DNA of 64,000 nucleotides, taken from NCBI GenBank assembly GCA_027020785.1, contig JALUVI010000009.1, positions 3,469 to 67,468 on the forward strand. The letters run 5' to 3'. The translations under genes were made by a program, and so were the position numbers. Under the pieces are notes generated by a model. The model was not told the DNA's origin, did not search any database, and saw only the letters and a list, made by a program, of their open reading frames with translations. This DNA is from Planctomycetota bacterium. GTDB taxonomy: Bacteria > Planctomycetota > UBA1135. Of this stretch, positions 11,543 to 27,052 are shown piece by piece; positions within the stretch are counted from its first letter, which is position 1, and each line of letters opens with the position of its first letter.

Positions 11543-13935
11543 CTCTCGACCCAGACGAACTCGAGGCCCCGGGTCCAGGCCTTCTCGAGGACCTCCACGT
11601 CGGGCCGGTTGTCCTTCGGAAGGATGATGCGACGCACGCCCTGGCGCTTGGCTGCCAGCACCTTCTCGCGCAGCCCACCCACCGGCAGGACCTCGCCGGT
11701 CAGCGAGATCTCGCCGGTCATCGCCGTGCGGGCCCTCATGGCGTGCCCCGTGAGGCAGGACACCATCGCGGTCGCAGCGGCGATGCCGGCGCTCGGGCCG
11801 TCCTTGGGCACGGCGCCGGCCGGGAAGTGCACGTGGAGATCGAGCCCTTGCATCAGATCCACGTCGATGCCGTAGGAGCGCCCGTGCGAGCGGAGATAGG
11901 CGTGTGCGATGCGAGTGGACTCCTGCATCACCTCGCCGAGACGGCCGGTGGCCTGGACCGCGCCGCGGCCGGGGTAGGACACGGCCTCGATCTCCAAGAC
12001 GTCGCCGCCGTATGGGGTGTAGGCGAGGCCCAGAGCCACGCCGACGCCGGGATGGAGGCGCACCTCCTCCTCGAGGAAACGCGGCGGCCCGAGGTACCGT
12101 TCGAGACGCTTCGGACCGATCGCGGGTTTCGGCCGTTTGCCCTCGGCGATCTCCATCGCCCGCTTGCGGCACAACGAGGCGATCATCTTCTCGAGCCCGC
12201 GCACTCCGGCTTCCCGGGTCCAGCCGCGAATCAGCAGTCGCAGCGTGGCCACCGGCAGCGCGATGCGGTCCGGCTCCAGACCGTTTTCGCGGATCTGGCG
12301 CGGCAAGAGGTGGCGCCTGGCGATCATCACCTTCTCCTGCTCGATGTAGCCGGGCAACTCGATGATCTCCATCCGGTCGCGCAGGGCATCGGGGATGTCC
12401 ATGACCACGTTGGCGGTGGCGATGAACAGCACCCTGGAGAGGTCGAACGGCAAGTCCAGATAGAGGTCGAGGAAGGCGTGGTTCTGCGCCGGATCGAGCA
12501 CCTCCAGCAGGGCGCTCGCCGGATCACCCCGGAAGTCCTTGCCGAGCTTGTCGATCTCGTCCAACACCAGGATCGGATTGTTGGTCCCGGCCCGCTTGAT
12601 CATCTGGACGATGCGGCCCGGCATGGCGCCGACATAGGTTCGACGATGTCCCTTGATCTCGGCCTCGTCTCGCATCCCCCCCAGGCTCATGCGCTCGAAG
12701 CGGCGCCCCATCGCCTCGGCCAGGGCCATCGCGAGCGAAGTCTTGCCAACGCCGGGAGGGCCAGCGAAGCAGAGGATCGCGCCGCGCGGCTCCTTGCGGA
12801 GTTTGCGCACGGCGAGGAACTCGAGGATGCGCTCCTTGGCCTCCTCGAGTCCGTAGTGGTGTTTGTCGAGGACCCGCCTTGCACGCTTCAGGTCGAGCGA
12901 GTCCTCGCTGGTCACGTGCCACGGCAATTCGACCAACCAATCCAGGTAGGTGCGCACCACCGAATACTCGGGGGAGGTCTGCGGAATCAGGGCCAGTCTC
13001 TCGAGCTCGTCCCGCACCTTCGCTGCGACCTCCTCGGGGTAGTCTCCCTCTTCGAGCTTGGCCAGGAAGTAGTCCCGGTCCTGCTCCTGCGGCTCCTTCT
13101 CCTCGCCGAGCTCGCGCTTGATCACCTTGATCTGCTCGCGCAGGAAGAACTCCTTCTGCTGCTGCTCGATGCGGGCGCGGATCTCCTGCTGGATGCGGTC
13201 GCCGAGCTCGAGGGTGACCAGCTCGCGCGTCAAGGCTTCGTCCACGATCATCAGACGCTCACGAACGTCGAGCTCCCGCAGTACCGACAGCTTGGTTGCG
13301 GCGTCTCGGACCAGATAGGCGGCGCAGAAGTCGGCAAGCTGACCGGCGGCCTCGATGTTGAGCGCCGCCAGGCTGAAGCCTTCACCCAGACTGGGGTTGT
13401 GGGCCGCGACCTTCTGGGCCAGCTCCAAGACGTTGCGGGCCAGGGCCTCGGTCTCGCGTCCGGGCGACGGCCGGTCCTCCGGGTAGGAGACGCGCACCCG
13501 GGGTACACCCCGCACCCGGAGGAAGCGCTCGACGCGGAAACGCCGGATCCCGCGACAAAGGAAGTTGGAGTTGCCGTCCGGCAACCGGATGCGACGGTGG
13601 ATCTCGGCGAGCACCCCCATGTCGGCGAATTGGGAAGACTCGGTGGGCAGGCCCTCGGTCGGGGCCCCCGGAGCCGGCAGCAGCCCGACCTTTCCCCCGG
13701 CCCGGACCGCTGCCTCCATGATCTCGGTCTCGGGGCCATCCTCGACCTGGACCGGCATGATCAGGGAGGGGAACGGGACGGACCGCCGCAGCGGAAACGC
13801 GATGAGCGTGCCGGGGAGTGAATCCACGCTCGGCATCGGCAGCCGACTCAACTCCTCGGCGGCCTCCTCGACGCGCTCTTCGTTCTCGCCGGGCGGGAAG
13901 TGCTGGATCTCGGGATCGGGAGCGTCTTGCGTCAT
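11473..13935 (-). CDS. lon: ATP-dependent Lon protease (endopeptidase La)
   Basis: It has an N-terminal LON domain, Walker A 'GPPGVGKTS' and the protease motif 'PKDGPSAGIA'. The length is 820 aa. Confidence 0.95.
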   Translation of the reverse strand: MTQDAPDPEIQHFPPGENEERVEEAAEELSRLPMPSVDSLPGTLIAFPLRRSVPFPSLIMPVQVEDGPETEIMEAAVRAGGKVGLLPAPGAPTEGLPTESSQFADMGVLAEIHRRIRLPDGNSNFLCRGIRRFRVERFLRVRGVPRVRVSYPEDRPSPGRETEALARNVLELAQKVAAHNPSLGEGFSLAALNIEAAGQLADFCAAYLVRDAATKLSVLRELDVRERLMIVDEALTRELVTLELGDRIQQEIRARIEQQQKEFFLREQIKVIKRELGEEKEPQEQDRDYFLAKLEEGDYPEEVAAKVRDELERLALIPQTSPEYSVVRTYLDWLVELPWHVTSEDSLDLKRARRVLDKHHYGLEEAKERILEFLAVRKLRKEPRGAILCFAGPPGVGKTSLAMALAEAMGRRFERMSLGGMRDEAEIKGHRRTYVGAMPGRIVQMIKRAGTNNPILVLDEIDKLGKDFRGDPASALLEVLDPAQNHAFLDLYLDLPFDLSRVLFIATANVVMDIPDALRDRMEIIELPGYIEQEKVMIARRHLLPRQIRENGLEPDRIALPVATLRLLIRGWTREAGVRGLEKMIASLCRKRAMEIAEGKRPKPAIGPKRLERYLGPPRFLEEEVRLHPGVGVALGLAYTPYGGDVLEIEAVSYPGRGAVQATGRLGEVMQESTRIAHAYLRSHGRSYGIDVDLMQGLDLHVHFPAGAVPKDGPSAGIAAATAMVSCLTGHAMRARTAMTGEISLTGEVLPVGGLREKVLAAKRQGVRRIILPKDNRPDVEVLEKAWTRGLEFVWVESYEEVFGAAFPARFVEAARRAAN

Positions 13936-15236
13936 GGCGAAGCGGAGGAAGCAGTGGTGAGGACCTCTTCACCCTCGGTGCGGGCGACGACGGCAGCGGC
14001 GATGGTGTCGGACCAGACGTTCACCGCGGTCCGCATCATGTCGAGCGGGCGATCGATGGCGAGGAGCAGGACGGCGCCCTCGATGGGCAGCCCCAGCCCC
14101 GACAGGATCGCGGTCATCATCACCAATCCGGCCGAAGGGATCCCGGCGGCGCCGATCGAGGCCAGGAGTGCGGTGAACACCACGTAGATCTGATCGGCGA
14201 GATCGAGGGAGAAGCCGCCCGAAGAAGCATAGAACTGCGACAGGAACAGCACCCCCAGGCATTCGTAGAGGGCGGTGCCGTCCATGTTGATGGTCGCACC
14301 GAGCGGGAGCGTGAAGGACGCAATCTTGTTGGAGACGCGCCCCCGCTCTTCGACCACGCGCAGGGTGACCGGGAGCGTGACCGAGGAGCTCGAAGTCGAG
14401 AAGGCCGTCAGCAGGGCCGGCAGGGCGGCCTTGAACCACCGCAACGGTGAGACCCCGGCGATGAACCAGAGCAAGGCGGGAAGGACCACCGCGGCATGGA
14501 ACAGCAGCGCCAGGCCCACCACCGCCATGTAGTAGAGGAGGTCGCCGAACGATCCGAAGCCGGTCTCGCCGACCACCTTCACCATCAAGGCGAACACGCC
14601 GTAGGGAATCAGGGACAGGACCCAGCCGGCGATCTCCATCATCAGGGCGAACCCCGACTCGAACAGTTCCTGGAGCGGACGGCGATGACGCTCCGGAAGA
14701 CGAGCCAGGAAGAAGCCGACGAGGAGGGCGAAGAAGATGACCTGGAGCATCAGGCCGTTGTCCGAGAGCGCCTCGAAGACGTTCTGCGGGATCATCCGCT
14801 CGAGGATGTCGGCGAAACTCCGGCCGCCGCCGGGCTCGAAGTGGTCGGGCACCGCCAAGGGCAGGTCGGCCCCGACCCCGGGACGGAAGAGGTTGACCGC
14901 CAGCAGACCGGTCGTGATGGCCAGCAACGAAGTCAGGACGTAGTAGCCGAGGGTCTTGCCGCCGAGACGTCCGAAATCACGGCTGCCGGCGATGCCCGCC
15001 ACCCCCTGGACGATGCTGGTCAGGATCAGCGGCACGATGAGCATCCGCAGGAGGCTCATGAACACGTTGGCGGCGAGCCGAAAGGGCGCCAGCCAGGTGT
15101 CCAGGGCACAGCCGTCGGCGAGTCGGGCGACCCCTTTCTCGTCGACCACGAACTCGGCGGGCAGCCATGCCCGCATGGCGGCCCCCGTGAGGGTCCCGAG
15201 GACCAGCCAGAGGAGGATCCGCGTGTGGAGCTTCAC
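13932..15236 (-). CDS. Dicarboxylate/amino acid:cation symporter (DAACS family)
   Basis: It is polytopic. 'SSSVTLPV', 'PLGATINMDGTALY' and 'AAGIPSAGLV' match GltP/SstT-type motifs. The stop overlaps the lon start. Confidence 0.85.
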   Translation of the reverse strand: MKLHTRILLWLVLGTLTGAAMRAWLPAEFVVDEKGVARLADGCALDTWLAPFRLAANVFMSLLRMLIVPLILTSIVQGVAGIAGSRDFGRLGGKTLGYYVLTSLLAITTGLLAVNLFRPGVGADLPLAVPDHFEPGGGRSFADILERMIPQNVFEALSDNGLMLQVIFFALLVGFFLARLPERHRRPLQELFESGFALMMEIAGWVLSLIPYGVFALMVKVVGETGFGSFGDLLYYMAVVGLALLFHAAVVLPALLWFIAGVSPLRWFKAALPALLTAFSTSSSSVTLPVTLRVVEERGRVSNKIASFTLPLGATINMDGTALYECLGVLFLSQFYASSGGFSLDLADQIYVVFTALLASIGAAGIPSAGLVMMTAILSGLGLPIEGAVLLLAIDRPLDMMRTAVNVWSDTIAAAVVARTEGEEVLTTASSASP

Positions 15237-15269
15237 GGCCCCAGGATAGGGGCGCGGGCCTCCACCGCC

Positions 15270-16163
15270 CTAGATCTCGACGCCGAAGACGCCCTTGAGT
15301 CCGAAGCCCACGGCCAACGAGACCACCACGAACCAGATCATGACGGACATCTCGCCGCCCCCCAGGAAGCCGAGGGGTTGGGGGGGATAGGGCACGAGGA
15401 CGGCCCGGACGAAGGAGTCGTCGGGCAGGACCGGCTCACCGAACCAGAGGATGGGGTCCTCGGCGGCGAGGAAGCGGTCCACCGGCTCGGAGGTCCGGAG
15501 CCGGGCCAGGCGCCGCGGCCTCTCGCTCGAGGCCAGGACCTTGGTGACCTCCTCGCCGCCGTGCTGCAGGGAGAGGTCCCCGATGCCCTCCCCGAGATCG
15601 GTGAGCTGGAGCAGGATCCGCGGGGCGGCACGGTCGGCCAGGTTCACCCGCCGCTCGACCCGGAAGGCCTGGGGCAGTTCGATCCCGACCTCGGTCGGAT
15701 CCACTCCCTGGCGCAGTTCGACCTGGACCAATGGACGGTCGCCGGGTTCCAGCGGCGCAAAGGCGTACAGCGCGTTCAGCTGGAACCAGACGAACATGAA
15801 GGGAACCGCCAGGACGAACAGCGGCAGCAGGTTCAATCCGATGTAGGCGAAGTTCCAGAACAAGGTGCCGCCGGTGGACTTCAGCACCGAGGGCAGGTCG
15901 TCCTGGAACAGACGGATCGCGAGCAGGTTGTACTTGATGCGGTCCTTGACCGCCTTGATCCCACGCTGGCTGCTGACGTGGGGGAAGGCCAGGATGAAGA
16001 GCACCCCGACCAGGGCGGAGACGAAGGTCACGGCCCAGAACGGCCCCATCCAACCGAGGATGAGGTCGAGACCGTCGAAGACCGCGTTCAGCGCACTCGG
16101 CACCAGCACGCCCACCACCGCGATGGCGGCGGCGATGGCGAAGACGATGAGACGGCCCTTCAC
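15270..16163 (-). CDS. Hypothetical polytopic membrane protein (297 aa)
   Basis: Clear hydrophobic helices lie at the N terminus, in the middle and at the extreme C terminus. A soluble segment of about 110 aa lies between them. I recognise no family. It sits directly downstream of RHH-B. Confidence 0.55.
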   Translation of the reverse strand: MKGRLIVFAIAAAIAVVGVLVPSALNAVFDGLDLILGWMGPFWAVTFVSALVGVLFILAFPHVSSQRGIKAVKDRIKYNLLAIRLFQDDLPSVLKSTGGTLFWNFAYIGLNLLPLFVLAVPFMFVWFQLNALYAFAPLEPGDRPLVQVELRQGVDPTEVGIELPQAFRVERRVNLADRAAPRILLQLTDLGEGIGDLSLQHGGEEVTKVLASSERPRRLARLRTSEPVDRFLAAEDPILWFGEPVLPDDSFVRAVLVPYPPQPLGFLGGGEMSVMIWFVVVSLAVGFGLKGVFGVEI

Positions 16164-16202
16164 GGCTGGCGGCTCGAGGCGGGGATGGATGAAGAGCTGG
16201 GC

Positions 16203-16400
16203 TCAGCTGATGTAGCCGAGACCACGCAGCGATTCGGTGATGGCCTCGTCGCTGGTACCGGCGGCCTCGATCTGCTTGAGCTCCTTCTCGAGGACGTGCT
16301 CGATGAACTCCTGCACCGAGGAGTAGCCGGCGACCTCAGCGCACTTCTTGGCGCGCTCGAGCAGTTGCTTGTCGATCTTGACTTTGTTGCCTCCGAACAT
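16203..16400 (-). CDS. Small ribbon-helix-helix (CopG/Arc-like) protein, copy B, with a C-terminal 'LGYIS' tail
   Basis: 'KVKIDKQLLERAKKCAEVAGYSSVQEFIEHVLEKEL' fits a beta-strand/helix/helix pattern. It is a paralog of the ORF at 23594..23830. Confidence 0.65.
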   Translation of the reverse strand: MFGGNKVKIDKQLLERAKKCAEVAGYSSVQEFIEHVLEKELKQIEAAGTSDEAITESLRGLGYIS

Positions 16401-16418
16401 GGATGGAATCTATCTGGG

Positions 16419-18581
16419 TTAGGGGTTTCGGATGTCGTGGAACAGCGGTCTGCCGTCCATGCCGTCGGGGGGCTCCACGCCGAACAAGGCGTAGAGGGTG
16501 GCGGTGATGTCCTCCAAGGCGGGGTCCTTGGCGAGCTCGACTGGATGGCGCACGATCATGGTGCCGCGCACCAACTCCGGATCCATGAGGTGGCTGCCGG
16601 ACCAACGCGAGTCGTTGTCCACGATGCAGCGCCCCTCCTGCCACGTGCCGACGACACCGCCGATGGCGGACTCGTCGCTGGCGCCGTAGCCGACGTCGAA
16701 GCCGAGCTGGAGGTCGGGCGCCCAGCGCAGCTGGTCGCCCTGGAAGACGTCGGTGGCGAGCTCCACGCGCGTCATCACCGGGCTGCCGTCTTCGTCCCGC
16801 AAGGCCAGCAACTTGGCCCGGATCTCCTCGAGCAGCGCCGGCGCCTCGTCGTCGGTGACGATGCCGAAGGGCTCACGGCCGACGCGGTTGAGGATGACGC
16901 CGTTGAAGCCGACCGCGTAGGCACGGGTCTTCGCCCAATCCACGTCGCCGCTGCCGGGGATCGGGTTGCCGTCGTGGTCCAGGTGGACCGCAAGGCTCGA
17001 GGTCGAAGTCACTCCTTCCTTCAGGACCAGGTAGCCCTCCTGCACCAGCCAGTCGTTCACGTGCATCTTGCGACGGAACGGCGCGAAGCCGTGGTCGCTC
17101 ATCACGATCAGCTCGACGGGCTCTCCGCCGGCGGCCTCGACCGCCTCGATCTCCTCCATCAGCCGACCGAGCATGGCGTCCACCTGACGATAGATGCGGT
17201 CGATCTGCTGGTCGTAGGGCACCCCGTCGTACTCGCCCGGGGGCTCCTGGTGGGGATGCTCGGGATCCTGGCAGTGCCACAGCATGTGGCATCGAAGATC
17301 GAGCGACCCGACGTAGAAGAACAGCAGCCCGCCGGTACGGGACCACTGGTCCACCGCATAGTCGAGCATGCGCGCGCGCTCCTCGATCACCGTGTCGGAC
17401 TGGTCCACGAAGCCCGCGGTGTCGAGCAGGCCGGCCTTGTAGGCCTTGTAGGCATCCGGGAAGCCTTGCGTGTAGTACGGCCCGATGGCGGCGGCGAGGT
17501 CGGCGGCGGCCTCCTCGGGAGTGCTCACCGGCATTGCGGGAGCGAAGGGATCGATCTGCACCGGCGCGCCGTAGACCTCGAACGGCTCGTCGGAGACGAA
17601 CCGGAACCGCGTGTAGCCGGAGACCGGCACCATGCCGCCCCACAGCATGCCGAACTCGACCGGGATCCAGTCGCTCCACTCACCGAGCGAACACAGCGCC
17701 CAGGCGTCGCCGATGCGCACGGCGAGCTGCGGTACGGAGTCGGTCCGGTCCACGTAGAACTCGACCGGCTCGAAGACCTCCCTGGCCCTCACGATCTCAC
17801 CGTCCAGACGATTGGCGAGAGCCATGTCGCCGGCGGCGATGGCCGCGTCGCGTTGCGCCTCGAGGTCGCTCAAGTCCTTGTAGCCGTCCTCGGGCCCGAA
17901 GATGCGGTCGTAGGCCTTCCACAGGCGGGAGTCGTTCCGCGTCACCTTGACCCGACGGCGGAAGTAGCTCTCGCCCGAACCGGGAGTGACCCGCTCGCCC
18001 CAGAGGTAGGCCTTGCCGGAGGCGGCTCCGGTCAGGTCGGGGGTCCCCATGTCGGGGAACACGACCGCGTGCGCTTCCTGGGGGGGGAAATCGGCCGGGA
18101 TGCGGTGCACGTAGACGGGCACTCCGGCTTCACCCATGACCTCCCAGAAGGCCGGGAAGGCCCGTGTCAGTCGGGTCTCACCCCCGGTCAGCGGAATGCG
18201 GTAGCCGAACAGCGGCAGCTCGAGGCCCACCGGATCCGTCTCGGACATGGACGACTGGATGCCGTAGTCGCTGCGGCGGACGTGGATGAAGTCGTAGAGG
18301 CCGTGGCGCCCCGGATTGGCGCCGGTGATGAAGTTGGACCAGGCCACGGGCGACTGCGGAGGCCAACTGGTCTGCAGGGAGGACAGCCTCCCGCCGCGGA
18401 TCAGCTCGGCGAAGTGGGGCAGCTCGCCCCGCTCGACCCGCTCCATCAGCATCTCGGGGTCGAGACCGTCCACCCCGAACACCACGACCCGACGGTCGGA
18501 GTGGCCGAGGTCGAGATCGCCCCCGCCACAGGCAGCGAGCACGCCGAGGAGGGCGCAAGCCGAGGCCAGGCGCACCCTCAT
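16419..18581 (-). CDS. Alkaline-phosphatase/nucleotide-pyrophosphatase (NPP) superfamily lipoprotein, 720 aa
   Basis: The lipobox is 'LGVLAAC'. Motifs are 'VVFGVDGLDPEM', 'PPQSPVAWSNFITG', 'MSDHGFAPFRR' and 'WSGSHLMDP'. It is a paralog of 18578..20776 and 24545..27052. Confidence 0.75.
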   Translation of the reverse strand: MRVRLASACALLGVLAACGGGDLDLGHSDRRVVVFGVDGLDPEMLMERVERGELPHFAELIRGGRLSSLQTSWPPQSPVAWSNFITGANPGRHGLYDFIHVRRSDYGIQSSMSETDPVGLELPLFGYRIPLTGGETRLTRAFPAFWEVMGEAGVPVYVHRIPADFPPQEAHAVVFPDMGTPDLTGAASGKAYLWGERVTPGSGESYFRRRVKVTRNDSRLWKAYDRIFGPEDGYKDLSDLEAQRDAAIAAGDMALANRLDGEIVRAREVFEPVEFYVDRTDSVPQLAVRIGDAWALCSLGEWSDWIPVEFGMLWGGMVPVSGYTRFRFVSDEPFEVYGAPVQIDPFAPAMPVSTPEEAAADLAAAIGPYYTQGFPDAYKAYKAGLLDTAGFVDQSDTVIEERARMLDYAVDQWSRTGGLLFFYVGSLDLRCHMLWHCQDPEHPHQEPPGEYDGVPYDQQIDRIYRQVDAMLGRLMEEIEAVEAAGGEPVELIVMSDHGFAPFRRKMHVNDWLVQEGYLVLKEGVTSTSSLAVHLDHDGNPIPGSGDVDWAKTRAYAVGFNGVILNRVGREPFGIVTDDEAPALLEEIRAKLLALRDEDGSPVMTRVELATDVFQGDQLRWAPDLQLGFDVGYGASDESAIGGVVGTWQEGRCIVDNDSRWSGSHLMDPELVRGTMIVRHPVELAKDPALEDITATLYALFGVEPPDGMDGRPLFHDIRNP

Positions 18582-20776
18582 GCCGCCGCCTCCTCCGCAC
18601 GGGACTCCCCCACCGCGGGTCCGCCGCCGGCCTCACGCGGGCCGAACAGCGGGCGCCCCTGCATGTAGTCGGGGACCGGCACGCCGAACAGGTGGAGCGC
18701 AGTCGGACCGAGGTCCATGATGTCGGGCTGGTCGGTGTTGAGCGGGCGGTCGCTGAAGATCACGCCGGGCACCTCCCGCGGATCGATGCAGTGGTCGCCG
18801 GACCAGGACTTGGTGTTGTCGGAGAAGACCTCTGCGGGACAAGCCCCGGTGGCGCAATCCCACGAGTTGCGGTAGCCCCGCACATAGCCCACGAACAGGT
18901 CCGGGGCCTCGAACACGTAGGGCCCGGTGAAGATGCGCTCGGAGTCGAACACCTCGCGGAACACCTTTTCGCCGGTCTTGGGGTCGACCAGTTCGGACAG
19001 TTTGGCCCGGATCTCGTCCTTCAACTCACGCAACTCGCGCCCCTCGGCGACGATGCCGTCGCGCTCGCGGGCCTGGCGGTTGATGAAGATGCCGGTCAGG
19101 CCGAGCGAGAAGGCCCGGGTCCGCGACCAGTCGACGTCCTGGCACCAGTCGCGGCCGATGGGCTTGCCGCTGGCCTCGTCCACCGGAGCATCGTCCTTCA
19201 GGACCAGATAGCCGTGGTCCCGCAGCCAGGCATTGAGGTTGACCCCCCGCTTGAACTGGCAGAACCCGTGGTCGCTGATCACCATGAGACGGTCCTTCTT
19301 CGGATCGAGCCGCTTGCGCACCTCGGCGACCACCTCGTCGGCCAAGGCGTACGACTCGGCGATCTTGTCCTTCCCCCACTCCGTGTCCTTGCCCTCGTTG
19401 GCGGGGTGGTCGGGGTCGAGGTAGCGGTGGAACATGTGCGACACCCGATCGGTGGTGTCGAAGACGCAGACCACCGAGCCCTTCTTGGTCTTGTCGAGCG
19501 CCTCGAAGAGCTGCTTCTTGCGCTCCTCGAAGATGTGCATGGCGTAACCCCAGAAAGCCTTCTCGTCGATGACCCGCTCGTTCAACGCCCAGGTGTCCTC
19601 GGCCAGCCCCAGGGTCGCGAACGGCCCCAGTTTCTTGGCCAAGTAGATGGAGTACACCTTCGGATGCGAGATGGGCATCGCCGGGTTGCCCGGGTCGATC
19701 TGGATCGGGGTCATGTAGAGCCCGAACTCGGGGGCGGTCCCCATGCAGTAGAAGCGCACCAACCCGGTGACCTTGCCGACCACCGGCGCCGCCTGGAAGG
19801 TGAGGGTGATCCAATCGCTGTACTCGCGGACGCCGAGCTCCAGAACCTGCTGGTCGCCCTTGGGGCCGATGGTCAGGCGGATGCGACGGTTCTCCTCCAG
19901 GACGTCGATGCGCATCGGAAGGCGCATCACCGGGTTCCCCTCGACCATCGGGTTCGGCGGCCCGGCGATCGAACCGCGCAGGACGTCGCCGCTCCGACCG
20001 ACGAGGTGGACCTCGCCTCCGGCCTCCGGCCCGGCGAGGGCGGAATCGGTGGTCCAGAAGGTGAACGAGCCCTGGGTCCCGCGCAGGTCGGGCACGCACA
20101 TCCCCGCAAGGCAGACGCCGTGGAACTCGTCGGGGGGGAACGTGATCGGAACGCGGATCACGTTCGAGAAGATCTTCCGCTCGCCGAGCACCTTCCACCA
20201 GGGCTTGCCCTTGCGCAGCAACCGGATGGTCGGCTTGCCGAGCGGGATGCGGTACTTCCCGAGCTTGAGCTCCTTCTCGGACCCGCGGATGTCGGTGCTC
20301 GACAGCACCGGCAGGTAGGTGCAGGGGTCGCGGGTGATGAAGTCGAAGATGTTGTGCCGGGAGGCATCGGTGCCGGTCGCGAAACTGGACCAGGCCACCG
20401 GGCTCATCGAGGGATAGCTCGACTGCAACGGCTTGAAGTCGCCCTCCTCGGCGAGTGCCGCAAGGTTGGGCATCCTCCCCTCGTCCATGTAGCGGCGGGC
20501 CAGTTGCGGGTCCATCCCGTCGAAGCCGAGGATGACCAGGCGGCGGGTGTCTCCCTTGATGCGACCGGTACCGGTGACCGCACGCCACACCATCTTGAGC
20601 GGGAACAGCAGCAGGATGCCGACCGCCAGGAACAGGGACCCGAGCAGCACCGCCCCTCCGGAGAGGAAGGCGAAACCGGCGCCCGGGCCGATGTAGGCGG
20701 CGGCCGGGGCCGGCGTGGCCAGCCACGCCGCGAGGACGGCGCCGGCGCCGGCGAGGGGTCGGAGGAGCTTCCGCAT
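18578..20776 (-). CDS. Alkaline-phosphatase/NPP superfamily membrane-anchored protein (about 732-747 aa)
   Basis: 'AYIGPGAGFAFL' sits in an N-terminal hydrophobic region. Motifs are 'ILGFDGMDPQL', 'PSMSPVAWSSFATG', 'ISDHGFCQFKR' and 'WSGDHCIDP'. The start is ambiguous (20776, 20794 or 20821). The stop overlaps the next gene's start (ATGA). Confidence 0.75.
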   Translation of the reverse strand: MRKLLRPLAGAGAVLAAWLATPAPAAAYIGPGAGFAFLSGGAVLLGSLFLAVGILLLFPLKMVWRAVTGTGRIKGDTRRLVILGFDGMDPQLARRYMDEGRMPNLAALAEEGDFKPLQSSYPSMSPVAWSSFATGTDASRHNIFDFITRDPCTYLPVLSSTDIRGSEKELKLGKYRIPLGKPTIRLLRKGKPWWKVLGERKIFSNVIRVPITFPPDEFHGVCLAGMCVPDLRGTQGSFTFWTTDSALAGPEAGGEVHLVGRSGDVLRGSIAGPPNPMVEGNPVMRLPMRIDVLEENRRIRLTIGPKGDQQVLELGVREYSDWITLTFQAAPVVGKVTGLVRFYCMGTAPEFGLYMTPIQIDPGNPAMPISHPKVYSIYLAKKLGPFATLGLAEDTWALNERVIDEKAFWGYAMHIFEERKKQLFEALDKTKKGSVVCVFDTTDRVSHMFHRYLDPDHPANEGKDTEWGKDKIAESYALADEVVAEVRKRLDPKKDRLMVISDHGFCQFKRGVNLNAWLRDHGYLVLKDDAPVDEASGKPIGRDWCQDVDWSRTRAFSLGLTGIFINRQARERDGIVAEGRELRELKDEIRAKLSELVDPKTGEKVFREVFDSERIFTGPYVFEAPDLFVGYVRGYRNSWDCATGACPAEVFSDNTKSWSGDHCIDPREVPGVIFSDRPLNTDQPDIMDLGPTALHLFGVPVPDYMQGRPLFGPREAGGGPAVGESRAEEAAA

Positions 20777-20852
20777 GGGGGCGGTTCCCGTCATTCTGGG
20801 ACGGTGGAGGCGGCGCCGCAAGGGAAGACCCCGGCGCCGCCCCCGACCCTCG

Positions 20853-21407
20853 TCAGGAAGCGGCGGGCGCTTCGACCGGGATGTAGCCCTTCTCCTCGAG
20901 CCAGGACAGGATCACGTTCAGCGACTCCTCGGGGTCCTGGGTCTCGGAGTTGACCTTGATCTCGGGGTTCTCCGGGGCTTCGTACGGATCCGAGATCCCG
21001 GTGAAGTTCTTGATCTCGCCGGCCAGGGCCTTCTCGTAGAGCCCCTTGACGTCGCGGCGGGTCAGCTCCTCGATCGAGCACTCGGCGTAGATCTCGACGA
21101 AGTCGCGGCACATCGCACGCACCTGGTTGCGGACCTCGGCGTAGGGCGAGATCGCAGCGGTGATGGCGATGACTCCGTTGCGCGACAGCAGCTTGGCGAC
21201 GTAGCCGATGCGGCGGATGTTGGTGTCGCGGTCTTCCTTGGAGAAACCGAGACCCTTGGACAGGTTCTCGCGAACCTCGTCGCCGTCGAGCACCTCGACC
21301 TTGCAACCGCGCTTGCGCAGTTCGCCTTCGAGCATGCGGGAGAGAGTGGACTTGCCGGAGCCCGAGAGCCCGGTGAACCAAAGGACGCAACCCTTGTGGT
21401 CGGTCAT
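20853..21407 (-). CDS. cysC: Adenylyl-sulfate (APS) kinase
   Basis: The P-loop is 'GLSGSGKST'. 'LDGDEVRENLSKGLGFSKEDRDTNIRR' is a classic CysC motif. The length is 184 aa. Confidence 0.95.
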   Translation of the reverse strand: MTDHKGCVLWFTGLSGSGKSTLSRMLEGELRKRGCKVEVLDGDEVRENLSKGLGFSKEDRDTNIRRIGYVAKLLSRNGVIAITAAISPYAEVRNQVRAMCRDFVEIYAECSIEELTRRDVKGLYEKALAGEIKNFTGISDPYEAPENPEIKVNSETQDPEESLNVILSWLEEKGYIPVEAPAAS

Positions 21408-21460
21408 GACGTTGTGCAGTGGGATGGAGGTCGTTGGGGGTGGGAGGAGGAAGGCGCCGC

Positions 21461-22378
21461 TCAGCGGATCTTGCCCTCCAGGAAGGGCACTTCGAAGACC
21501 TTCTCGTGCATGATCGGGCCGTGACCGAAGTAGCCGGACTCGCCGAACAGCTCACCGTGGTCGGCTGTGACGATGATCCAGGTGTCCTTCGGAACCATGT
21601 CGTAGAGCCGCGGGAACACCTCACGGTCGAGATAGCGCACGGTCTCGATCTGACGCTGGCGGCACTTCTCGATCATCTCCATGTCCATGAAGTCGCCGGC
21701 CTCGTTGGCCGAGACCAGGTTGCCCTGCTCGTCGATCTCGCGGTCGAGCTTGCGGAAGATGCCGTTGACGCCGCTGATGTGAGGCAGGTCGTTCTTGTCC
21801 TCGTCGGGCAGCGCGTAGGGGTAGTGGGTCTCACCGACGTTCATCAGGTAGAACTGCGGCTGGTTGCCCTTGAGCCCCTTGCTCGGACGCTCCTTCTGGT
21901 GCGACTCGATGTCGTCGAGCATCGCCATCATGTCGTTGTGCTTCGGCATCAGCTTGAAGCTGTCGAAGTCCCGGTTGATCCCCGTGGCCGGATTCAACAC
22001 CGGCAGCGACACCATGGCGTGGCATTCGTACCCCTTCTTCTTGAGGAAGGTCGGCAACCACAAGTGAGGGATCATGGCCTCGAAGCCCGCCTGGTCCACG
22101 CCGAGCCGGTCCTTGAACTTGTACAGGTCCTCCTTGTAGTACTCGGAGGCGTACACCTTCTCGGGGCTGGTGTGGGGCACCAGGCCGGTCAGCAGGTTGT
22201 AGTGACTCGGTGCGGTCCAGCTGGCGTAGGTCCAGCGCGACTCGACGTTCTCGAGCCCGCCGCAGAGCTTGGCGATGTTCTCGGGCTCGGCCGCCATGAA
22301 GCTGTCGTAGCGGCACGAGTCGAGGGTGATGACGAGCAGGTGGTTCAGCTCGCGTTTCTTGCCGAAGATTCCGAACAT
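21461..22378 (-). CDS. Small AP/NPP-fold metalloenzyme (305 aa) with no signal peptide
   Basis: 'LLVITLDSCRYDSF' is the metal-site Asp region. 'SWTAPSHYNLLTG' resembles the NPP 'TFPNH..TG' Thr-nucleophile motif. 'VTADHGELFGESGYFGHG' is the distal metal site. No N-terminal hydrophobic segment is present. Confidence 0.65.
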   Translation of the reverse strand: MFGIFGKKRELNHLLVITLDSCRYDSFMAAEPENIAKLCGGLENVESRWTYASWTAPSHYNLLTGLVPHTSPEKVYASEYYKEDLYKFKDRLGVDQAGFEAMIPHLWLPTFLKKKGYECHAMVSLPVLNPATGINRDFDSFKLMPKHNDMMAMLDDIESHQKERPSKGLKGNQPQFYLMNVGETHYPYALPDEDKNDLPHISGVNGIFRKLDREIDEQGNLVSANEAGDFMDMEMIEKCRQRQIETVRYLDREVFPRLYDMVPKDTWIIVTADHGELFGESGYFGHGPIMHEKVFEVPFLEGKIR

Positions 22379-22400
22379 GGTCTCGCGTCAGGAAGGCCAA

Positions 22401-23558
22401 TCAGACGCCGGCGCCGCGCTTGGCGTAGGCGTCGATCAGGATGTCGGCGACCTCCGGGCGGGTGAACTCCGCCGGCGGACGCTCGCCCTTGGACAGCATC
22501 TCGCGCACCTTGGTGCCCGACAGGAAGATGCGGTCCTCGGGGCCGGCGGGGCTCGACTTGGTGGTCGCCATGCCGCCGGTCAGCTTGCAGTAGAAGGCGT
22601 GCTCGAAGCGCAGGGTCTGGATCTCGAGGTCGTCACCGAGGTCGTCGAAGATCTGCTGCGCGTCGAAGGTGCCGTAGTAGTCGCCGACACCGGCGTGGTC
22701 GCGCCCGATGATGATGTGGGTGCAGCCATAGTTCTGGCGGCAGATGGCGTGCAGCACGGCCTCGCGCGGCCCGCCGTAGCGCATCGCTTGGGGGTACACC
22801 GCGAGCAGGGTGCGGTCCATCGGGTAGTACTTCTCGAGCAGCACCTGGTAGCACTGCATCCGCACCTCGCTCGGGACGTCGTCGGACTTGGTGTCCCCCA
22901 CCAGCGGGTGGACGAGGAGGCCGTCGGTCTGCTCCAGGGCGACCTTGGTCAGGTACTCGTGGGCGCGGTGGATGGGGTTGCGGGTCTGGAAGGCGCTGAC
23001 CGTGTTCCAACCGCGCTCGGCGAAGGCGGCGCGGGTCTGCGCCGGCGTCAGCCGATGCTCGAGGAAGTTCTCGTGGCGCGGCAGCGCCACGACTTCGATC
23101 GGGCCGCCGAGGTACCACGACCCGCTGGACTGCAGGTAACCCCAGGCCGGGTGGTTCTCGTCGCCGCGGAAGCAGGCCTGCAGCTCGCGCTGCTTGTCGG
23201 GCTGCCACTTGCTCTCGACGGTCATCACGCCGAGCAGCGCACCGTCGGCGTCGCGCAGCGCGACCCGGTCGCCCTCGGCCACGGCGGCGACCTCCTCGTC
23301 GGTGGCGGACAGCACCACCGGCAGCGGCCACAGCGTGCCGTTCGCGAGCCGCATCCCCTCCACCACGCCTTCGTAGTCGGCCTGGTTCAGGAACCCGGTG
23401 AGCGGGCTCATCGCTCCGGTCGCGATCATCTCCAGGTCGGAGCGCTCGCGCGAATCGAGGGTGACGGAAGGCAGGCTCTCGGCCTGGGCGAGGAGGGCGT
23501 CGCGGGCCTCGTCGGAGACGAGACGGTCCACGAGGGTGCCACCGTGGGGCTGGATCAT
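22401..23558 (-). CDS. sat: Sulfate adenylyltransferase (homo-oligomeric ATP sulfurylase)
   Basis: The start is the ATG at 23558 ('MIQPHGGTLV'). Motifs are 'QTRNPIHRAHE' and 'IIGRDHAGVG'. The upstream 301 codons of listed ORF 22401..24461 are read-through. Confidence 0.95.
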   Translation of the reverse strand: MIQPHGGTLVDRLVSDEARDALLAQAESLPSVTLDSRERSDLEMIATGAMSPLTGFLNQADYEGVVEGMRLANGTLWPLPVVLSATDEEVAAVAEGDRVALRDADGALLGVMTVESKWQPDKQRELQACFRGDENHPAWGYLQSSGSWYLGGPIEVVALPRHENFLEHRLTPAQTRAAFAERGWNTVSAFQTRNPIHRAHEYLTKVALEQTDGLLVHPLVGDTKSDDVPSEVRMQCYQVLLEKYYPMDRTLLAVYPQAMRYGGPREAVLHAICRQNYGCTHIIIGRDHAGVGDYYGTFDAQQIFDDLGDDLEIQTLRFEHAFYCKLTGGMATTKSSPAGPEDRIFLSGTKVREMLSKGERPPAEFTRPEVADILIDAYAKRGAGV

Positions 23559-23593
23559 GACGGACTGGGGCTCGGGGTCTGGGATGGAGTGGG

Positions 23594-23830
23594 CTACAGG
23601 TAGCCGAGGTTCTTCAGGCGCTGCCGGACCGCCTCCAGTTCCTCCGGCGTGAACTCGCGCTCCTCCGGAGCGACGTCGGGCTGGCTGGTCTCCACGTGCG
23701 AGACCAGGTCGCGCAGGACGAACACGACGAAGTCCGTGGGCGACGAGAAGCCGGAGTTCTCGATCACCTGTTGGATCCTCCGGTAGAGGGGCCGGGGGAT
23801 CTTGACGGTGACGCGGGGTTCCTTGAGCAT
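23594..23830 (-). CDS. Small ribbon-helix-helix (CopG/Arc-like) protein, copy A, with a C-terminal 'LGYL' tail
   Basis: 'VTVKIPRPLYRRIQQVIENSGFSSPTDFVVFVLRDLV' fits an RHH pattern. I prefer the ATG at 23830 over 23884, which lies inside the phased upstream repeats. Confidence 0.65.
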   Translation of the reverse strand: MLKEPRVTVKIPRPLYRRIQQVIENSGFSSPTDFVVFVLRDLVSHVETSQPDVAPEEREFTPEELEAVRQRLKNLGYL

Positions 23831-23875
23831 GACGGGGGAGGCGGACGCAGGAGGTCGCACAGGATACCCCGAGGA

Positions 23876-23914
23876 GAGTGTCATGGGAGTGTGATTGGAG
23901 TCTTTTCCGAGTGT
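23876..23914. promoter_or_regulatory. Four phased hexamers (GAGTGT x3, GAGTCT x1) at exact 11-bp spacing; candidate operator
   Basis: The hexamers start at 23876, 23887, 23898 and 23909. They lie in the 203-nt divergent region between RHH-A (start 23830, minus strand) and the lipoprotein gene (start 24034, plus strand). Confidence 0.4.
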
Positions 23915-24033
23915 CCCGGCCGCGACGGCCCTCTATCGGCCCCGCGGACCCGCCGCCTTGAGGCGCCGCCAGCTCCGAGCTCCCCTCCAGGGAAGGCCTC
24001 GTCGGCTCCCGGCGCGGAGTAGAATCCTCCGCC

Positions 24034-24540
24034 ATGCGCGCAGCCCACGCCCTGCTCATCCCCCTCCTCGCCCTGGCCCCGGCCCTGACGGCCTGCGGCG
24101 GTTCCGCCGAGCCGACCTGGGCGGACACCGCCGAGGCCATGGACGCCGGCCAGATGGCCGCTGCCGCGGGGGACGTCGAGACCGCCATCGCCGCCTTCCA
24201 GCAGGCCGCCCAGGACCCCGATCCCGCGACCCGGGCCGTCGCGCTCACCTCCCTGTTCGAGGTCGCCACGGCCAACGGCCGGCTCGAGGTGGCCCGAGAG
24301 GCGCTGACCGCGCTCCAGGCCCTGGGGCCGCAGGTGGTGACCGTCGAGGCCCTCGACGCCCTGTCCGCCGCCGTCGTGGCCACGCGCGACGCCGACCTCG
24401 TCGAAGAGTTCGTCCAGGTCGCCCTCGAGATGCACCCCGATGCCCAGGACGTCTTCGCCAACGAACTCAGCGTGGCGGAGAAGCTCCGCCTGGAGGGACC
24501 GGACGCCGACCTCTCCTCGCTGGGCTACGCCGGCGACTGA
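24034..24540 (+). CDS. Hypothetical Ala-rich lipoprotein (168 aa)
   Basis: It has a signal peptide with lipobox 'LTAC' and helical, TPR-like composition. I recognise no family. Confidence 0.5.
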   Translation: MRAAHALLIPLLALAPALTACGGSAEPTWADTAEAMDAGQMAAAAGDVETAIAAFQQAAQDPDPATRAVALTSLFEVATANGRLEVAREALTALQALGPQVVTVEALDALSAAVVATRDADLVEEFVQVALEMHPDAQDVFANELSVAEKLRLEGPDADLSSLGYAGD

Positions 24541-24544
24541 CCGC

Positions 24545-27052
24545 CTACTCGACCCGCAGCGGCGCGCCGTCCACCTCGTCGGGGACGGCCACCCCCATCA
24601 GCCGCAGCACGGTCGGCGCGAGGTGCACCGCATCGTAGTGGTCCGCCCCCGCGGGCAGGGCCGCCGGACGGCTGGAGAAGAAGATGCCCTGGACCTGGGC
24701 CAGGTCCACACCGCAGTGGTCGCCGGACCACGGCGAAGTGTTGTCGTAGACCGGCTCCTTGGCCGCCGCGATCAGGGCTCCGTCCTCGGTCTCGACGTCC
24801 TCGAGTCCGATGCGCCCGTCGGTCACCGACCACGCCGCGCGGTAGCCCGGCGCGAAGTCGATGGTGAGCTCGGCCGCGCCCTCGTACGCCGGCAGGCGGG
24901 GCGCCCCCTCGGGGCGAGCCGTCGGATCGATCCACGGCCCCTGATAGATGTCGTGCTTGCGATAGACCCGCCGCACGATCTTCTCGCCGGTCTCCGGGTC
25001 GGTCAGCTCCATCAAGCGCGCCTCGATCTCGTCCATCACGGCATCGGCCTCGGCCGGGTCCACGATGCCGTACTTCTCCCTCCCCTTCAGGTTGAGGTAG
25101 ATCTTGCCGATGGCCGCCGAGTAGGCCTGGGTCCGCGACCAATCGGCCCAGTTCAGGTTGGCGGTCGCGATCTCGCGCGCCGTCTTCGGTTGCCCGAGCC
25201 GGTTGTGGTCGTCCAGCGCCGCGAAACCCTCGCGCACGAGCCAGTTGTTGAGCTGGACCTGGCGGCGGAACGAATCGAACCCGTGGTCCGAGACCACGAG
25301 CAGGACGTCGTCGGGCCCCATCGCCTCGTCCAGCAGCCAGCCGACCACGTCGTCCATCTGCTGGTAGGTCTTCAACCAGGTGTCGGCGATGGGCATTCGC
25401 TCGCCGAAGAACTCGACCTCCCGCCCGGCCAGGGCAGGGTCGTACTCCGGGTGCTTCGGGTCGAAGTGCCGCATCAGCATGTGGCAGACCCGGTCGGGCG
25501 AGCCGAAGAAGTGGAACAGGACCCGCCAGTCGTCGTCCTGCATCGCGTCCTCGAGCATCCTGCGGCGCCAGCCGTAGGTGAACTCGATGTCGGCGAGGAA
25601 GGCGTCGTCCGAGAGTTCGGCGTCCTTGACCGCATGGGTCTGACACGCCCACCCCAGGGTCTCGAAGGGCCCGATGCGCTCCTTCACCTCGGCGGCGAAC
25701 CCGGGCGGCCAGCAGATCTTGGACCCCGGCGTCGGATGGTCGGGGTCGATCTGGAGCGGCGACGCGAAGAGCTCCAGTTCACCGTCCACCTCCTCGGCCC
25801 AGAACCGCACCATGGCGTGGGTGGAGAAGCGGTCGTTCCAGGGGAACTCGACGAAGTAGAAGTCGCTCCAGCTGCCCAGCGGGATGGTCTGGGCGACGCC
25901 GTCCACCGTCAGCTCGACCGCTTCGTCGCCGCGGCTCCAGCGCACCTCCATCGGCACCCAGGTCCGCATCAGGTCGCGGCCGCCGCTGGCCAGGGCCTTG
26001 AGTCGCGAACGCTCCTTGGCGCGCTCGGGCGACGGCGAGGAGGCGAGGGCCTGGTCCAGTTCGGCGATGCGCGCCTGCACCTGCTCGCGCCGCCACTGGT
26101 TGAAGGGGCCGATCAGCTTGGACCGCCAGGTCCCGGGCTCGTCGCCCGCCTGCAGCCGGTACAGGTAGACCGTGCCGGCGCGGGTCCCGCTCGGCGAGGT
26201 CGGGGTCGGCGCGTCCTCCTCGGTCCACGCCGGCTGCGGCCGGTAGGTCTTGTTGTGCCGCACCCGCTCGTCCGCGGTGGTCCACAGCGCCGAGCTGTTG
26301 AGCCCGCCGGTCGCGTCGGGCGCACCGAGGCCGGCGATCAGCTTGCCGTGCTCCAACTCCTGCACCGGGTACGAGACGATGGTCCCCTGACCGCGGAACG
26401 GGACGCCCGCCTGGTCGAGGACCTCCCAGAAGTCGGGCTCCATGTCGGCGCGCGAGTAGTCGGTGAAGCCGCTCTCGGGATAGACGTCGCGCCACGACCA
26501 CGCGTACCACGCGCCGCCGCCGGCCACGGCCAGACCGAGCAGGACCGCCAGCGGCCGGGAGCGCCGCCGCAGGCCCAGGAACAGGACCCCGCCGAGCACC
26601 AGGCTGCCGCCGAGCAGGCCCCAGACCTGCTTCGGGTCGGCGAAGGGCAGGCCGGCCTCGGCCGCAGTGACCTTGCGCGGCGCGGTGAAGCCGAACTCGA
26701 CCGACATGCCGGAACCGCGGGGATTGTCGCGGAACACGCCGATGAAGTCGAAGATCCCGGTCTTGCCCGGGTTGCAGCCGGTGTTGATGGTCGCCCAGGA
26801 CACCGGCGACTGCGCCGGGTTGGCCGGCATGAAGGGCGCGAAGGTCCCCTGGTCGCGCAACCGGGCGAAGTTCGGCAGCAGGCCGGCGTCCATCCATTCG
26901 GCGGCCTTGCGCGAGTCCATGCCGTCCATGCCGAGGACGATGACACGGCCCTGGGCGGCCCCTCCGCCCCCGGAGTCCCCGGAGGGAGTCGGCGCAGCGG
27001 CCTGCGGTAGAATCGAGGCGGAGAGGAGGAGGGTGAGCGAAACGATGGACAT
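24545..27052 (-). CDS. Alkaline-phosphatase/NPP superfamily protein, 835 aa, with a TM hairpin inserted in the catalytic domain
   Basis: A signal peptide is present. Motifs are 'VLGMDGMDSR', 'PAQSPVSWATINTG', 'VSDHGFDSFRR' and 'WSGDHCGVD'. Two hydrophobic helices ('VWGLLGGSLVLGGVLFLGL' RRRSRP 'LAVLLGLAVAGGGAWYAWSW') are encoded at about nt 26492-26626. Confidence 0.75.
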   Translation of the reverse strand: MSIVSLTLLLSASILPQAAAPTPSGDSGGGGAAQGRVIVLGMDGMDSRKAAEWMDAGLLPNFARLRDQGTFAPFMPANPAQSPVSWATINTGCNPGKTGIFDFIGVFRDNPRGSGMSVEFGFTAPRKVTAAEAGLPFADPKQVWGLLGGSLVLGGVLFLGLRRRSRPLAVLLGLAVAGGGAWYAWSWRDVYPESGFTDYSRADMEPDFWEVLDQAGVPFRGQGTIVSYPVQELEHGKLIAGLGAPDATGGLNSSALWTTADERVRHNKTYRPQPAWTEEDAPTPTSPSGTRAGTVYLYRLQAGDEPGTWRSKLIGPFNQWRREQVQARIAELDQALASSPSPERAKERSRLKALASGGRDLMRTWVPMEVRWSRGDEAVELTVDGVAQTIPLGSWSDFYFVEFPWNDRFSTHAMVRFWAEEVDGELELFASPLQIDPDHPTPGSKICWPPGFAAEVKERIGPFETLGWACQTHAVKDAELSDDAFLADIEFTYGWRRRMLEDAMQDDDWRVLFHFFGSPDRVCHMLMRHFDPKHPEYDPALAGREVEFFGERMPIADTWLKTYQQMDDVVGWLLDEAMGPDDVLLVVSDHGFDSFRRQVQLNNWLVREGFAALDDHNRLGQPKTAREIATANLNWADWSRTQAYSAAIGKIYLNLKGREKYGIVDPAEADAVMDEIEARLMELTDPETGEKIVRRVYRKHDIYQGPWIDPTARPEGAPRLPAYEGAAELTIDFAPGYRAAWSVTDGRIGLEDVETEDGALIAAAKEPVYDNTSPWSGDHCGVDLAQVQGIFFSSRPAALPAGADHYDAVHLAPTVLRLMGVAVPDEVDGAPLRVE

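Follow-up and report, generated by a model that had tools for sequence, protein, structure and literature searches.

Mnt and Arc of phage P22 are small ribbon-helix-helix (RHH) repressors that act at repeated operator sites and form higher oligomers, and in Mnt a C-terminal helix outside the RHH core tetramerises the protein. In RHH antitoxins (ParD, CopA, RelB, KacA) a C-terminal region binds a protein partner, which tunes operator binding. PutA is an RHH fused to an enzyme, in CymR-CysK a DNA-binding function is coupled to the enzyme state, and peptides bound by CysK follow the rule of a C-terminal Ile with a free carboxylate. Here we analyse two small RHH proteins, RHH-A and RHH-B, encoded in a 64,000-nucleotide stretch of a Planctomycetota genome (contig JALUVI010000009.1, positions 3,469 to 67,468 of the forward strand; hereafter the window), together with the short C-terminal tail, capped by LGY(I/L), that they share with several enzymes and other proteins. 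We favour, with a probability of about 40%, the reading that RHH-A is an operator-binding autoregulator and that the tail is a portable protein-association helix. The closest designs, Mnt, the RHH antitoxins, PutA and CymR-CysK, all lack the LGY tail.

The locus shares with Mnt and Arc a small RHH protein and repeated sites and, with Mnt, a C-terminal helix beyond the core. In contrast to both, the tail sits on a long, variable, acidic linker, carries a strict LGY(I/L) cap and is common to enzymes, and the putative operator is made of two to five direct 11-bp repeats instead of a 21-bp palindromic site; Pfam and PDB profile searches gave no sequence match to Mnt. The layout of an N-terminal RHH followed by a flexible C-terminal region is also that of RHH antitoxins, but the tail is much shorter than theirs and occurs on enzymes as well. 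A toxin-antitoxin pair was rejected because neither gene has a toxin gene beside it: RHH-A is flanked by sat and a lipoprotein gene, RHH-B by AP720 and the gene for a 297-amino-acid membrane protein, and these neighbours are conserved in related loci. As in PutA, CymR-CysK and the binding of the CysE tail to CysK, a regulator or C-terminal peptide would be coupled to a metabolic enzyme, although the RHH here, unlike that of PutA, is unfused and shares a peptide with enzymes, and the CysK rule does not apply, since 0-3 variable residues follow the Tyr. Like NikR and MetJ, the proteins would regulate uptake or assimilation genes, and the RHH core is weakly similar to NikR, whose models gave the only NCBIfam matches (E 0.036-0.17, far below the cut-offs and confined to NikR positions 5-52); with 78 and 65 amino acids versus about 130-140 they nevertheless lack the ACT-like metal-binding domain of NikR, and no ligand site is recognisable in either protein. 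The "AlkP superfamily phosphohydrolase/phosphomutase" enzymes of PF01663 (the JGI name; about 550 amino acids), which we take to be COG3379, share linker and LGY tail with the RHH proteins and differ in fold. Among the matches listed in full-text literature searches there was nothing relevant on RHH proteins with sulfate assimilation, sulfate adenylyltransferase or Planctomycetes, and a literature search on COG3379 brought up nothing related to the LGY tail.

RHH-A (78 amino acids; 23594-23830, minus strand) is the first gene of the sat operon and RHH-B (65 amino acids; 16203-16400, minus strand) lies between AP720 and the membrane protein gene. Both open reading frames (ORFs) are thus where the first-pass annotation of this DNA had placed them, and the peptides it had quoted are exact. 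The start of RHH-A was set at the ATG at 23830, though the frame is open to 23884; its orthologs begin with MLKE or MQKE. That the two proteins are paralogs, as had been proposed from the sequence, is borne out by pairwise BLASTP (E 1e-8, 27% identity, aligned from the N-terminal strand through the tail) and by the alignment of the two family profiles (99.1% probability, E 4.8e-19); a profile search found exactly two full RHH copies in the genome. At E <= 0.01, database searches returned 709 homologs of RHH-A and 384 of RHH-B, mostly from Planctomycetota metagenome-assembled genomes and annotated at the source as Arc/MetJ- or CopG-type regulators or as "hypothetical", RHH-B being 75-95% identical to its close kin. 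In 13 ungapped RHH-B orthologs, differences at codon positions 1, 2 and 3 number 176, 109 and 285, as for a translated gene; this pattern, together with the numbers of homologs, argues that the small ORFs are genuine genes.

The AlphaFold2 model of RHH-A (35-row alignment; mean predicted local distance difference test score, pLDDT, 78.6) is extended at residues 1-12 and helical at 13-22 and 31-49, with a core pLDDT of 89-92, followed by a linker at about 60 and a third helix at residues 62-74 at 75-78; the ribbon strand reads RVTVKIP. The top Foldseek rows are mostly RHH proteins (Arc, CopA, ParD, ORF56, NikR, PutA52 and KacA), with root mean square deviations of 1.4-3.3 Å over 40-47 columns for Arc, CopA, PutA52 and NikR. 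The PDB profile search gave sub-threshold matches only, to NikR (E 0.085) and Arc (E 0.36). We accept RHH-A and RHH-B as RHH proteins, with the caveat that the Foldseek E-values are non-significant. Two natural variants (P0269 and P0241) were noticed, one an RHH-A-like protein with two tandem tails and the other a protein with two tandem RHH-B units and one tail, possibly a single-chain dimer.

Beyond the core, RHH-A has an acidic linker of varying length (residues 44-59; 23654-23701) and then the tail module (residues 60-78; 23597-23653; FTPEELEAVRQRLKNLGYL), which consists of an S/T-x-x-E N-cap, an amphipathic helix and an L-G-Y-L C-cap. The corresponding module of RHH-B covers residues 49-65 (16206-16256; TSDEAITESLRGLGYIS). 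The conservation of this tail, on which the first-pass annotation had built its case, holds throughout the homologs: all 120 RHH-A homologs listed, out of 709, end in LGY[ILVM] plus 0-1 residue, and 119 of the 120 listed for RHH-B, out of 384, end in LGYI plus one residue, the remaining one ending in LGYFS. A profile of both families collected 1945 representatives (50% identity clusters) at E <= 1e-3; among the best 147 of them, 131 end in GY[ILVMF] plus 0-3 residues and most of the other 16 are cut short, prolonged or continue into other frames. Across 35 diverse RHH-A-like members, the only invariant positions are Y16, L72, L75, G76 and Y77. From the VLRDL motif to the tail helix, 113 RHH-A homologs have 15-44 residues (median 19, mean net charge -3.9), and the RHH-B linker has 10-12. 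The ending is rare in the genome, where GY[ILVMF]x0-2 closes 9 of the 21,627 stop-to-stop frames that reach 50 or more amino acids and a six-frame scan found the full tail in only four, namely RHH-A, RHH-B and two PF01663 enzymes.

Aligned tails of five protein families share the [ST]-x-x-E cap, acidic residues and [IV]-x-x-x-L-x-x-L-G-Y-[ILVM]. We define the LGY-tail module as [FYL]-[ST]-x-x-E ... [IV]-x-x-x-L-x-x-L-G-Y-[ILVM] with 0-3 C-terminal residues, following a variable linker. RHH-A, RHH-B, both PF01663 enzymes, the CysC proteins of 10 loci and DUF2061 proteins conform to it; CysD-like proteins match in the C-terminal half only and the lipoprotein encoded divergently from RHH-A in the LxxLGY core only. 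We describe the tail as an amphipathic helix, capped and about 14 residues long, that lies outside the RHH core and is tethered by a flexible acidic linker. Proteasome-type HbYX or GQYL tails and C-terminal ligands of the PDZ or CysK type were ruled out because the Tyr does not stand at a constant distance from the C-terminus, and a membrane-targeting amphipathic helix because the linker and the N-terminal half of the tail are acidic.

The RHH profile matches, with its last 20 positions alone, the C-terminus of a PF01663 enzyme that is encoded elsewhere in the genome, on a different contig. On this contig (C159, L004:1-19001) the scan placed two tail-bearing cytoplasmic PF01663 enzymes, of 553 and 556 amino acids, at L004:6165-7826 and about L004:9995-11665, both on the minus strand. 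The last 12 residues of RHH-B are identical to the tail of the 553-amino-acid enzyme (IEESLRGLGYIQ) at 10 of 12 positions. The tail ends 116 of 120 homologs of this enzyme, down to 33% identity and in several phyla, and in the PF01663 family L546, G550 and Y551 are invariant, just like the catalytic residues. The model of the enzyme (pLDDT 95) resembles nucleotide pyrophosphatases/phosphodiesterases (NPP; Z 26 to the Xanthomonas NPP), and the NPP core takes up residues 1 to about 517, so that the tail, which lies beyond it, is an add-on and was rejected as part of the core of this fold. The two enzymes lie in a Wzx/Wzy-type polysaccharide cluster (Wzz, Wzy_C, GH39-like, Poly_export/SLBB, PIG-L and a Polysacc_synt flippase) that contains four PF01663 genes, two of them with the LGY tail; its NPP-like enzymes may modify a surface polysaccharide.

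In 10 loci (L038, L043, L047, L060, L065, L073, L078 and L081-L083) CysC carries the full tail, and such extended orthologs occur in Gemmatimonadota, Eisenbacteria, Acidobacteriota and some Planctomycetota. The CysC of the window ends in ...ILSWLEEKGYIPVEAPAAS; the extended orthologs run on through an acidic linker into a complete tail, ...RLxxLGY(I/L). More distant relatives were collected in a metagenome scan with a distant RHH-A-like profile (551 confirmed stretches, 80 loci kept), and 135 flanking ORFs from 56 of these loci, called by a simple longest-ORF caller, were scanned against Pfam and tallied by reading. Nine of the 135 carry the tail: five DUF2061 proteins, two CysD-like proteins, one CysC and one protein of unknown kind. 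DUF2061 membrane proteins of 100-127 amino acids, encoded beside TauE/SafE (L090, L091, L093, L097 and L109), end in ...PEDLKIIQNQLKELGYID, which is the same tail. At L154:8241-10431 and L159:2448-4638 an RHH protein with the tail, a 456-amino-acid PF01663 enzyme and a CysD-like protein (E 3e-66 to 1zun_A) ending in ...MQKLRALGYM are encoded in this order, a further link between NPP-like enzymes and sulfate activation. Canonical CysD (PDB 1zun_A) itself has an end, ...KKRQGY, that resembles the tail. Furthermore, 41 divergent ORFs upstream of RHH-A in related loci end in ...SGDxxxLxxLGY(V/L/M)(GD), a looser version of the tail that was also read as LxxLGY(V/A)GD, and 22 of these have a lipobox. 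The tail of the RHH proteins is homologous to those of the PF01663 enzymes and of the CysC and DUF2061 proteins of sulfate gene clusters and constitutes a portable module, and the occurrence of one tail on RHH proteins and enzymes fits a peptide for protein association.

The second line of evidence concerns the promoter of RHH-A. Four hexamers (on the gene strand RCACTC / ACTCC) with an exact spacing of 11 nucleotides form an operator-like array at 23876-23914, 46-84 nucleotides upstream of the RHH-A start, with a repeat unit of about RCACTCCAATC (11 bp). The array lies in the divergent promoter region common to RHH-A and the gene of a 168-amino-acid TPR-like lipoprotein (24034-24540, plus strand; weak TPR matches), which ends in ...DADLSSLGYAGD, a tail-like C-terminus; an exported protein with a tail-like motif thus shares the operator region with RHH-A. 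In the genome of 2.47 Mb (4.94 Mb on both strands) RCACTC-N5-RCACTC occurs once, at this array. The 1.26 Mb covered by 80 genomic loci that encode RHH-A relatives contain it 53 times, on either strand, and each time it is 38-174 nucleotides upstream of RHH-A. The same pair is found upstream of the RHH-A copy of the cultured Saltatorellus ferox Poly30 and 20 nucleotides upstream of the distant metagenomic relatives L139, L154 and L159. Phased direct repeats one helical turn apart are typical of RHH operators that bind several dimers (omega, CopG, Arc/Mnt). The conserved array, unique in the genome and situated in the gene's own promoter, makes it very likely that RHH-A binds DNA and autoregulates.

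The surrounding genes were examined in the same 80 loci, the window proteins being placed by tblastn and the tallies limited to loci with enough flank. Directly after RHH-A comes sat (ATP sulfurylase, 385 amino acids; 22401-23558, minus strand; PF01747 E 9.6e-97, with PUA_2), 36 nucleotides downstream in the window and next in 72 of 78 loci. It is followed by the gene of a 305-amino-acid sulfatase-like protein of the STM4013 type in the alkaline phosphatase (AP) superfamily (21461-22378, minus strand; PF00884 E 6.9e-8; NF038075 E 9.4e-19, below its cut-off), present in 48 of 65 loci, and by cysC (APS (adenosine 5'-phosphosulfate) kinase, 184 amino acids; 20853-21407, minus strand; PF01583 E 5.3e-63), whose product ends in ...LSWLEEKGYIPVEAPAAS and which lies at most 3.5 kb from RHH-A in 64 of 65 loci. 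The PF01663 enzyme genes AP747 (18578-20821) and AP720 (16419-18581), both on the minus strand and without the tail, come next; AP747 has an N-terminal hydrophobic hairpin with a conserved YIGPGAGFA motif, and AP720 (720 amino acids) a lipoprotein-type signal peptide. A large AP gene is found downstream of RHH-A in 36 of 48 loci. RHH-B begins 18 nucleotides after AP720 and ends 39 nucleotides before the gene of the 297-amino-acid membrane protein (15270-16163, minus strand), which has no Pfam family and always follows RHH-B. Of 48 loci, 35 have RHH-B downstream of RHH-A, and in all 35 the membrane protein comes next. The order RHH-A, sat, (305-amino-acid gene), cysC, AP747, AP720, RHH-B, membrane protein is kept in Planctomycetota, Gemmatimonadota, Eisenbacteria and Acidobacteriota. 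Within the window's family, all 24 other genomes searched have RHH proteins and 22 have both, and RHH-B was found in 24 of 151 sampled genomes of the phylum, the window's own included.

Thus the bracketing of the cluster by the two RHH genes, pointed out in the first-pass annotation, is real and conserved (6.6-8.9 kb from RHH-A to RHH-B, median 7.45 kb, n=39), and the association of the homologs with sulfur and AP-family genes is strong. The bracketing, however, reflects the joining of two modules with one RHH gene each, as indicated by S. ferox Poly30, in which RHH-A stands with the 305-amino-acid gene and cysC while AP747, AP720, RHH-B and the membrane protein gene are 0.6 Mb away. RHH-A heads a module for the synthesis of 3'-phosphoadenosine 5'-phosphosulfate (PAPS), comprising sat, the gene of the 305-amino-acid protein and cysC, and RHH-B occupies third place in a membrane module made up of AP747, AP720, RHH-B and the 297-amino-acid membrane protein. 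In the complete genome of S. ferox Poly30 (G186), RHH-A, RHH-B and the tail-like lipoprotein are spread over three loci (L052, L179 and L180), and no tail-bearing PF01663 enzyme was among the profile matches.

In the metagenomic set, 36 of the 56 scanned loci have sulfate-linked, AP-family or ABC-permease neighbours. These comprise TauE/SafE (often with DUF2061), Sbp with a CysT permease, APS kinase, ATP sulfurylase, a DASS symporter, PF01663 with a CysD-like protein, and ABC-permease pairs that are unassigned or of the Pst type. Seven of the 36 loci were counted on BPD_transp_1 permease pairs alone, and the one pair checked, at L123, is PstC/PstA, with both NCBIfam models above their cut-offs. 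A few loci beyond the 36 have PstS-type or porin O/P genes. Phosphate-type genes were seen as pstC/pstA at L123, L125, L133 and L144, as porin O/P at L102, L120 and L124, and as a PstS-type gene at L102 and L120; the Pst genes imply that some genes for an RHH with the tail head phosphate and not sulfate operons. In many lineages, then, the RHH-A family stands first in operons for the uptake and activation of oxyanions, the place of a dedicated regulator, and it may regulate oxyanion uptake more generally.

We infer DNA binding, repression and the target of the tail from these sequence patterns, and the mechanism that we favour would run as follows. Several RHH-A dimers would bind the phased 11-bp array in the RHH-A promoter on one face of the DNA, and RHH-A would thereby autoregulate the PAPS operon together with the divergent lipoprotein gene. 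The RHH tails would link the dimers to each other and so give cooperative binding on the repeat array, and tail-bearing enzymes of the pathway could compete by pairing with the same helix, which would let enzyme abundance or state titrate the regulator in a feedback loop. The tail is unchanged whatever operon the RHH gene heads, which points to a partner present everywhere, most simply another tail or the RHH dimer. The first-pass annotation had regarded the tail as a partner-binding or ligand-sensing peptide and the proteins as something other than plain repressors; partner binding gains from the conserved and portable tail, while the denial of a plain repressor is too strong given the operator array.

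Several points weigh against the autoregulator with an association helix. The strict repeat pair is present in only 35 of the 80 related loci (50 of 80 with at most one mismatch), and no such repeats were seen near RHH-B or upstream of the membrane module in the related loci and in S. ferox. The Foldseek matches of RHH-A all have E >= 0.98 and are non-significant, as is usual for a core of about 45 residues, and Pfam has no family for RHH-A at E <= 10 and only DUF6364 for RHH-B, at E 0.075. In addition, the RHH-A linker is long, variable and acidic (15-44 residues), which is easier to reconcile with a docking peptide on a tether than with a rigid domain for oligomerisation, and the tail of the 553-amino-acid enzyme is predicted confidently in a monomer model, possibly docked in cis and not paired.

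The last two points lead to the main rival, according to which the tail docks in trans on tail-less NPP-type enzymes in a form of trigger-enzyme control. The 553-amino-acid paralog would hold its tail in cis on the NPP body; AP747, AP720 and the 305-amino-acid protein have none, and RHH-A and RHH-B in the cytoplasm and the lipoprotein in the periplasm would supply it, so that the availability of the regulator reports the state of the enzyme. In the enzyme model the tail helix (residues 536-548) has a pLDDT of 88-92 and the linker 77, and AP747 and AP720, which are homologs of this enzyme, stop just where its linker starts. The near identity of the tails of RHH-B and the enzyme, the fact that RHH-B always accompanies AP747/AP720, even where the cluster is split, and the presence in each compartment of tail-less enzymes along with a small tail-bearing protein are likewise as expected for such docking. 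Distant RHH-A relatives, however, keep the tail with no PF01663 gene nearby, in TauE, Sbp-CysT and PstCA operons, and docking in cis is deduced from the confidence values of the model alone. A complex prediction of AP747 residues 85-747 (44 rows) with RHH-B residues 36-65 (64 rows) gave 0.00 against a mark of 0.32, with controls not run, and counts neither for nor against it. We regard docking in trans as conceivable but unlikely. The same standing, unlikely though credible, is given to a broader idea, in which the LGY tail would be a pathway-wide docking tag by which both RHH proteins, CysC, CysD-like proteins, DUF2061 proteins, NPP-like enzymes and the periplasmic lipoprotein co-assemble or plug into tail-less NPP-type enzymes. 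If this were true, transcription factors titrated by the enzymes that they control would make up a tag-based metabolon with built-in feedback, of a kind not described for sulfur metabolism.

A latch, in which the acidic linker and the tail bend back onto either the RHH dimer or the enzyme, with an oxyanion (sulfate, APS, PAPS or phosphate) switching DNA binding as S-adenosylmethionine does for MetJ and nickel for NikR, appears improbable. The family is tied to operons for sulfate and phosphate uptake and activation, an acidic linker (net charge about -4) lies beside a basic DNA-binding surface, and the G and Y of the tail are invariant, all of which would suit such a latch. A helix this short (about 14 residues) offers no pocket by itself, though, Pfam and NCBIfam gave no matches to ligand-binding families, and the spread of the tail over unrelated folds (RHH, NPP, P-loop kinase and DUF2061 membrane protein) speaks against one composite site. 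The ligand-sensing half of the first-pass proposal gained no support: nothing in favour of small-ligand binding was found.

More doubtful still is that the tail serves as a recognition tag for a third party, be it a hub protein, a protease adaptor or a modifying enzyme, perhaps with the invariant Tyr as the modified residue, so that the sulfate system's proteins are labelled for co-localisation, turnover or modification. The peptide is indeed shared by several different proteins within one pathway, at 9 of 135 neighbour ORFs versus 4 of 21,627 genome frames. SSB proteins have a C-terminal tip of this design, with a flexible linker and a conserved docking end, which the tail resembles. It also resembles the tails of CysE and CdiA-CT that dock into CysK according to one published account (PMC5562914). 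Yet no candidate hub is conserved in all contexts, and 0 to at least 3 residues follow the Tyr, with longer extensions in some homologs, so that no free carboxylate at a fixed distance could be recognised. That LxxLGY(I/L) is only a stable Schellman-type helix C-cap, a neutral ending on ordinary repressors, is equally hard to credit: the motif does read as a capping box plus Gly C-cap, and CysD 1zun_A and the window CysC end similarly in ...KKRQGY and ...EEKGYIP, but an ending as invariant as catalytic residues in families down to 33% identity, kept across a variable linker in 131 of the best 147 of 1945 representatives and matched at 10 of 12 positions between RHH-B and an enzyme does not look neutral.

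If RHH-A-like proteins are regulators, as the favoured reading of an autoregulator with an association helix has it, they form a widespread family for oxyanion assimilation in many, mostly uncultured, phyla, unpublished as far as the full-text searches went. A short and strictly conserved peptide common to a transcription factor and to enzymes of the same pathway raises the question of what it binds, and a 39-bp operator, a 19-residue peptide and the cultured S. ferox Poly30, with its modules apart, are handles on it. The tail moreover offers an annotation rule for several thousand proteins now called "hypothetical" or "CopG family" and for the C-terminus of the large PF01663 enzyme family.

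The cluster belongs to a co-directional minus-strand run at 13.9-27.1 kb of the window, from AP835 (24545-27052), a third large PF01663 paralog that is found upstream only in closer relatives, down to an SDF-family symporter (13932-15236) at its end. A scan of 15100-24600 for promoters and terminators gave 0 promoter-like and 3 terminator-like sites, which is the level of shuffled sequence. Four AP-RHH "fusion" proteins (P0276, P0291, P0310 and P0364) look like read-through or frame errors of neighbouring genes and served only as a hint of adjacency. In AP747 the N-terminus consists of a signal-like hydrophobic segment, the motif Y-I-G-P-G-A-G-F-A, a second hydrophobic segment and basic residues; the motif is nearly invariant and kept in the alignment of 44 orthologs, and the arrangement points to a hairpin that anchors the protein and leaves its catalytic domain cytoplasmic.

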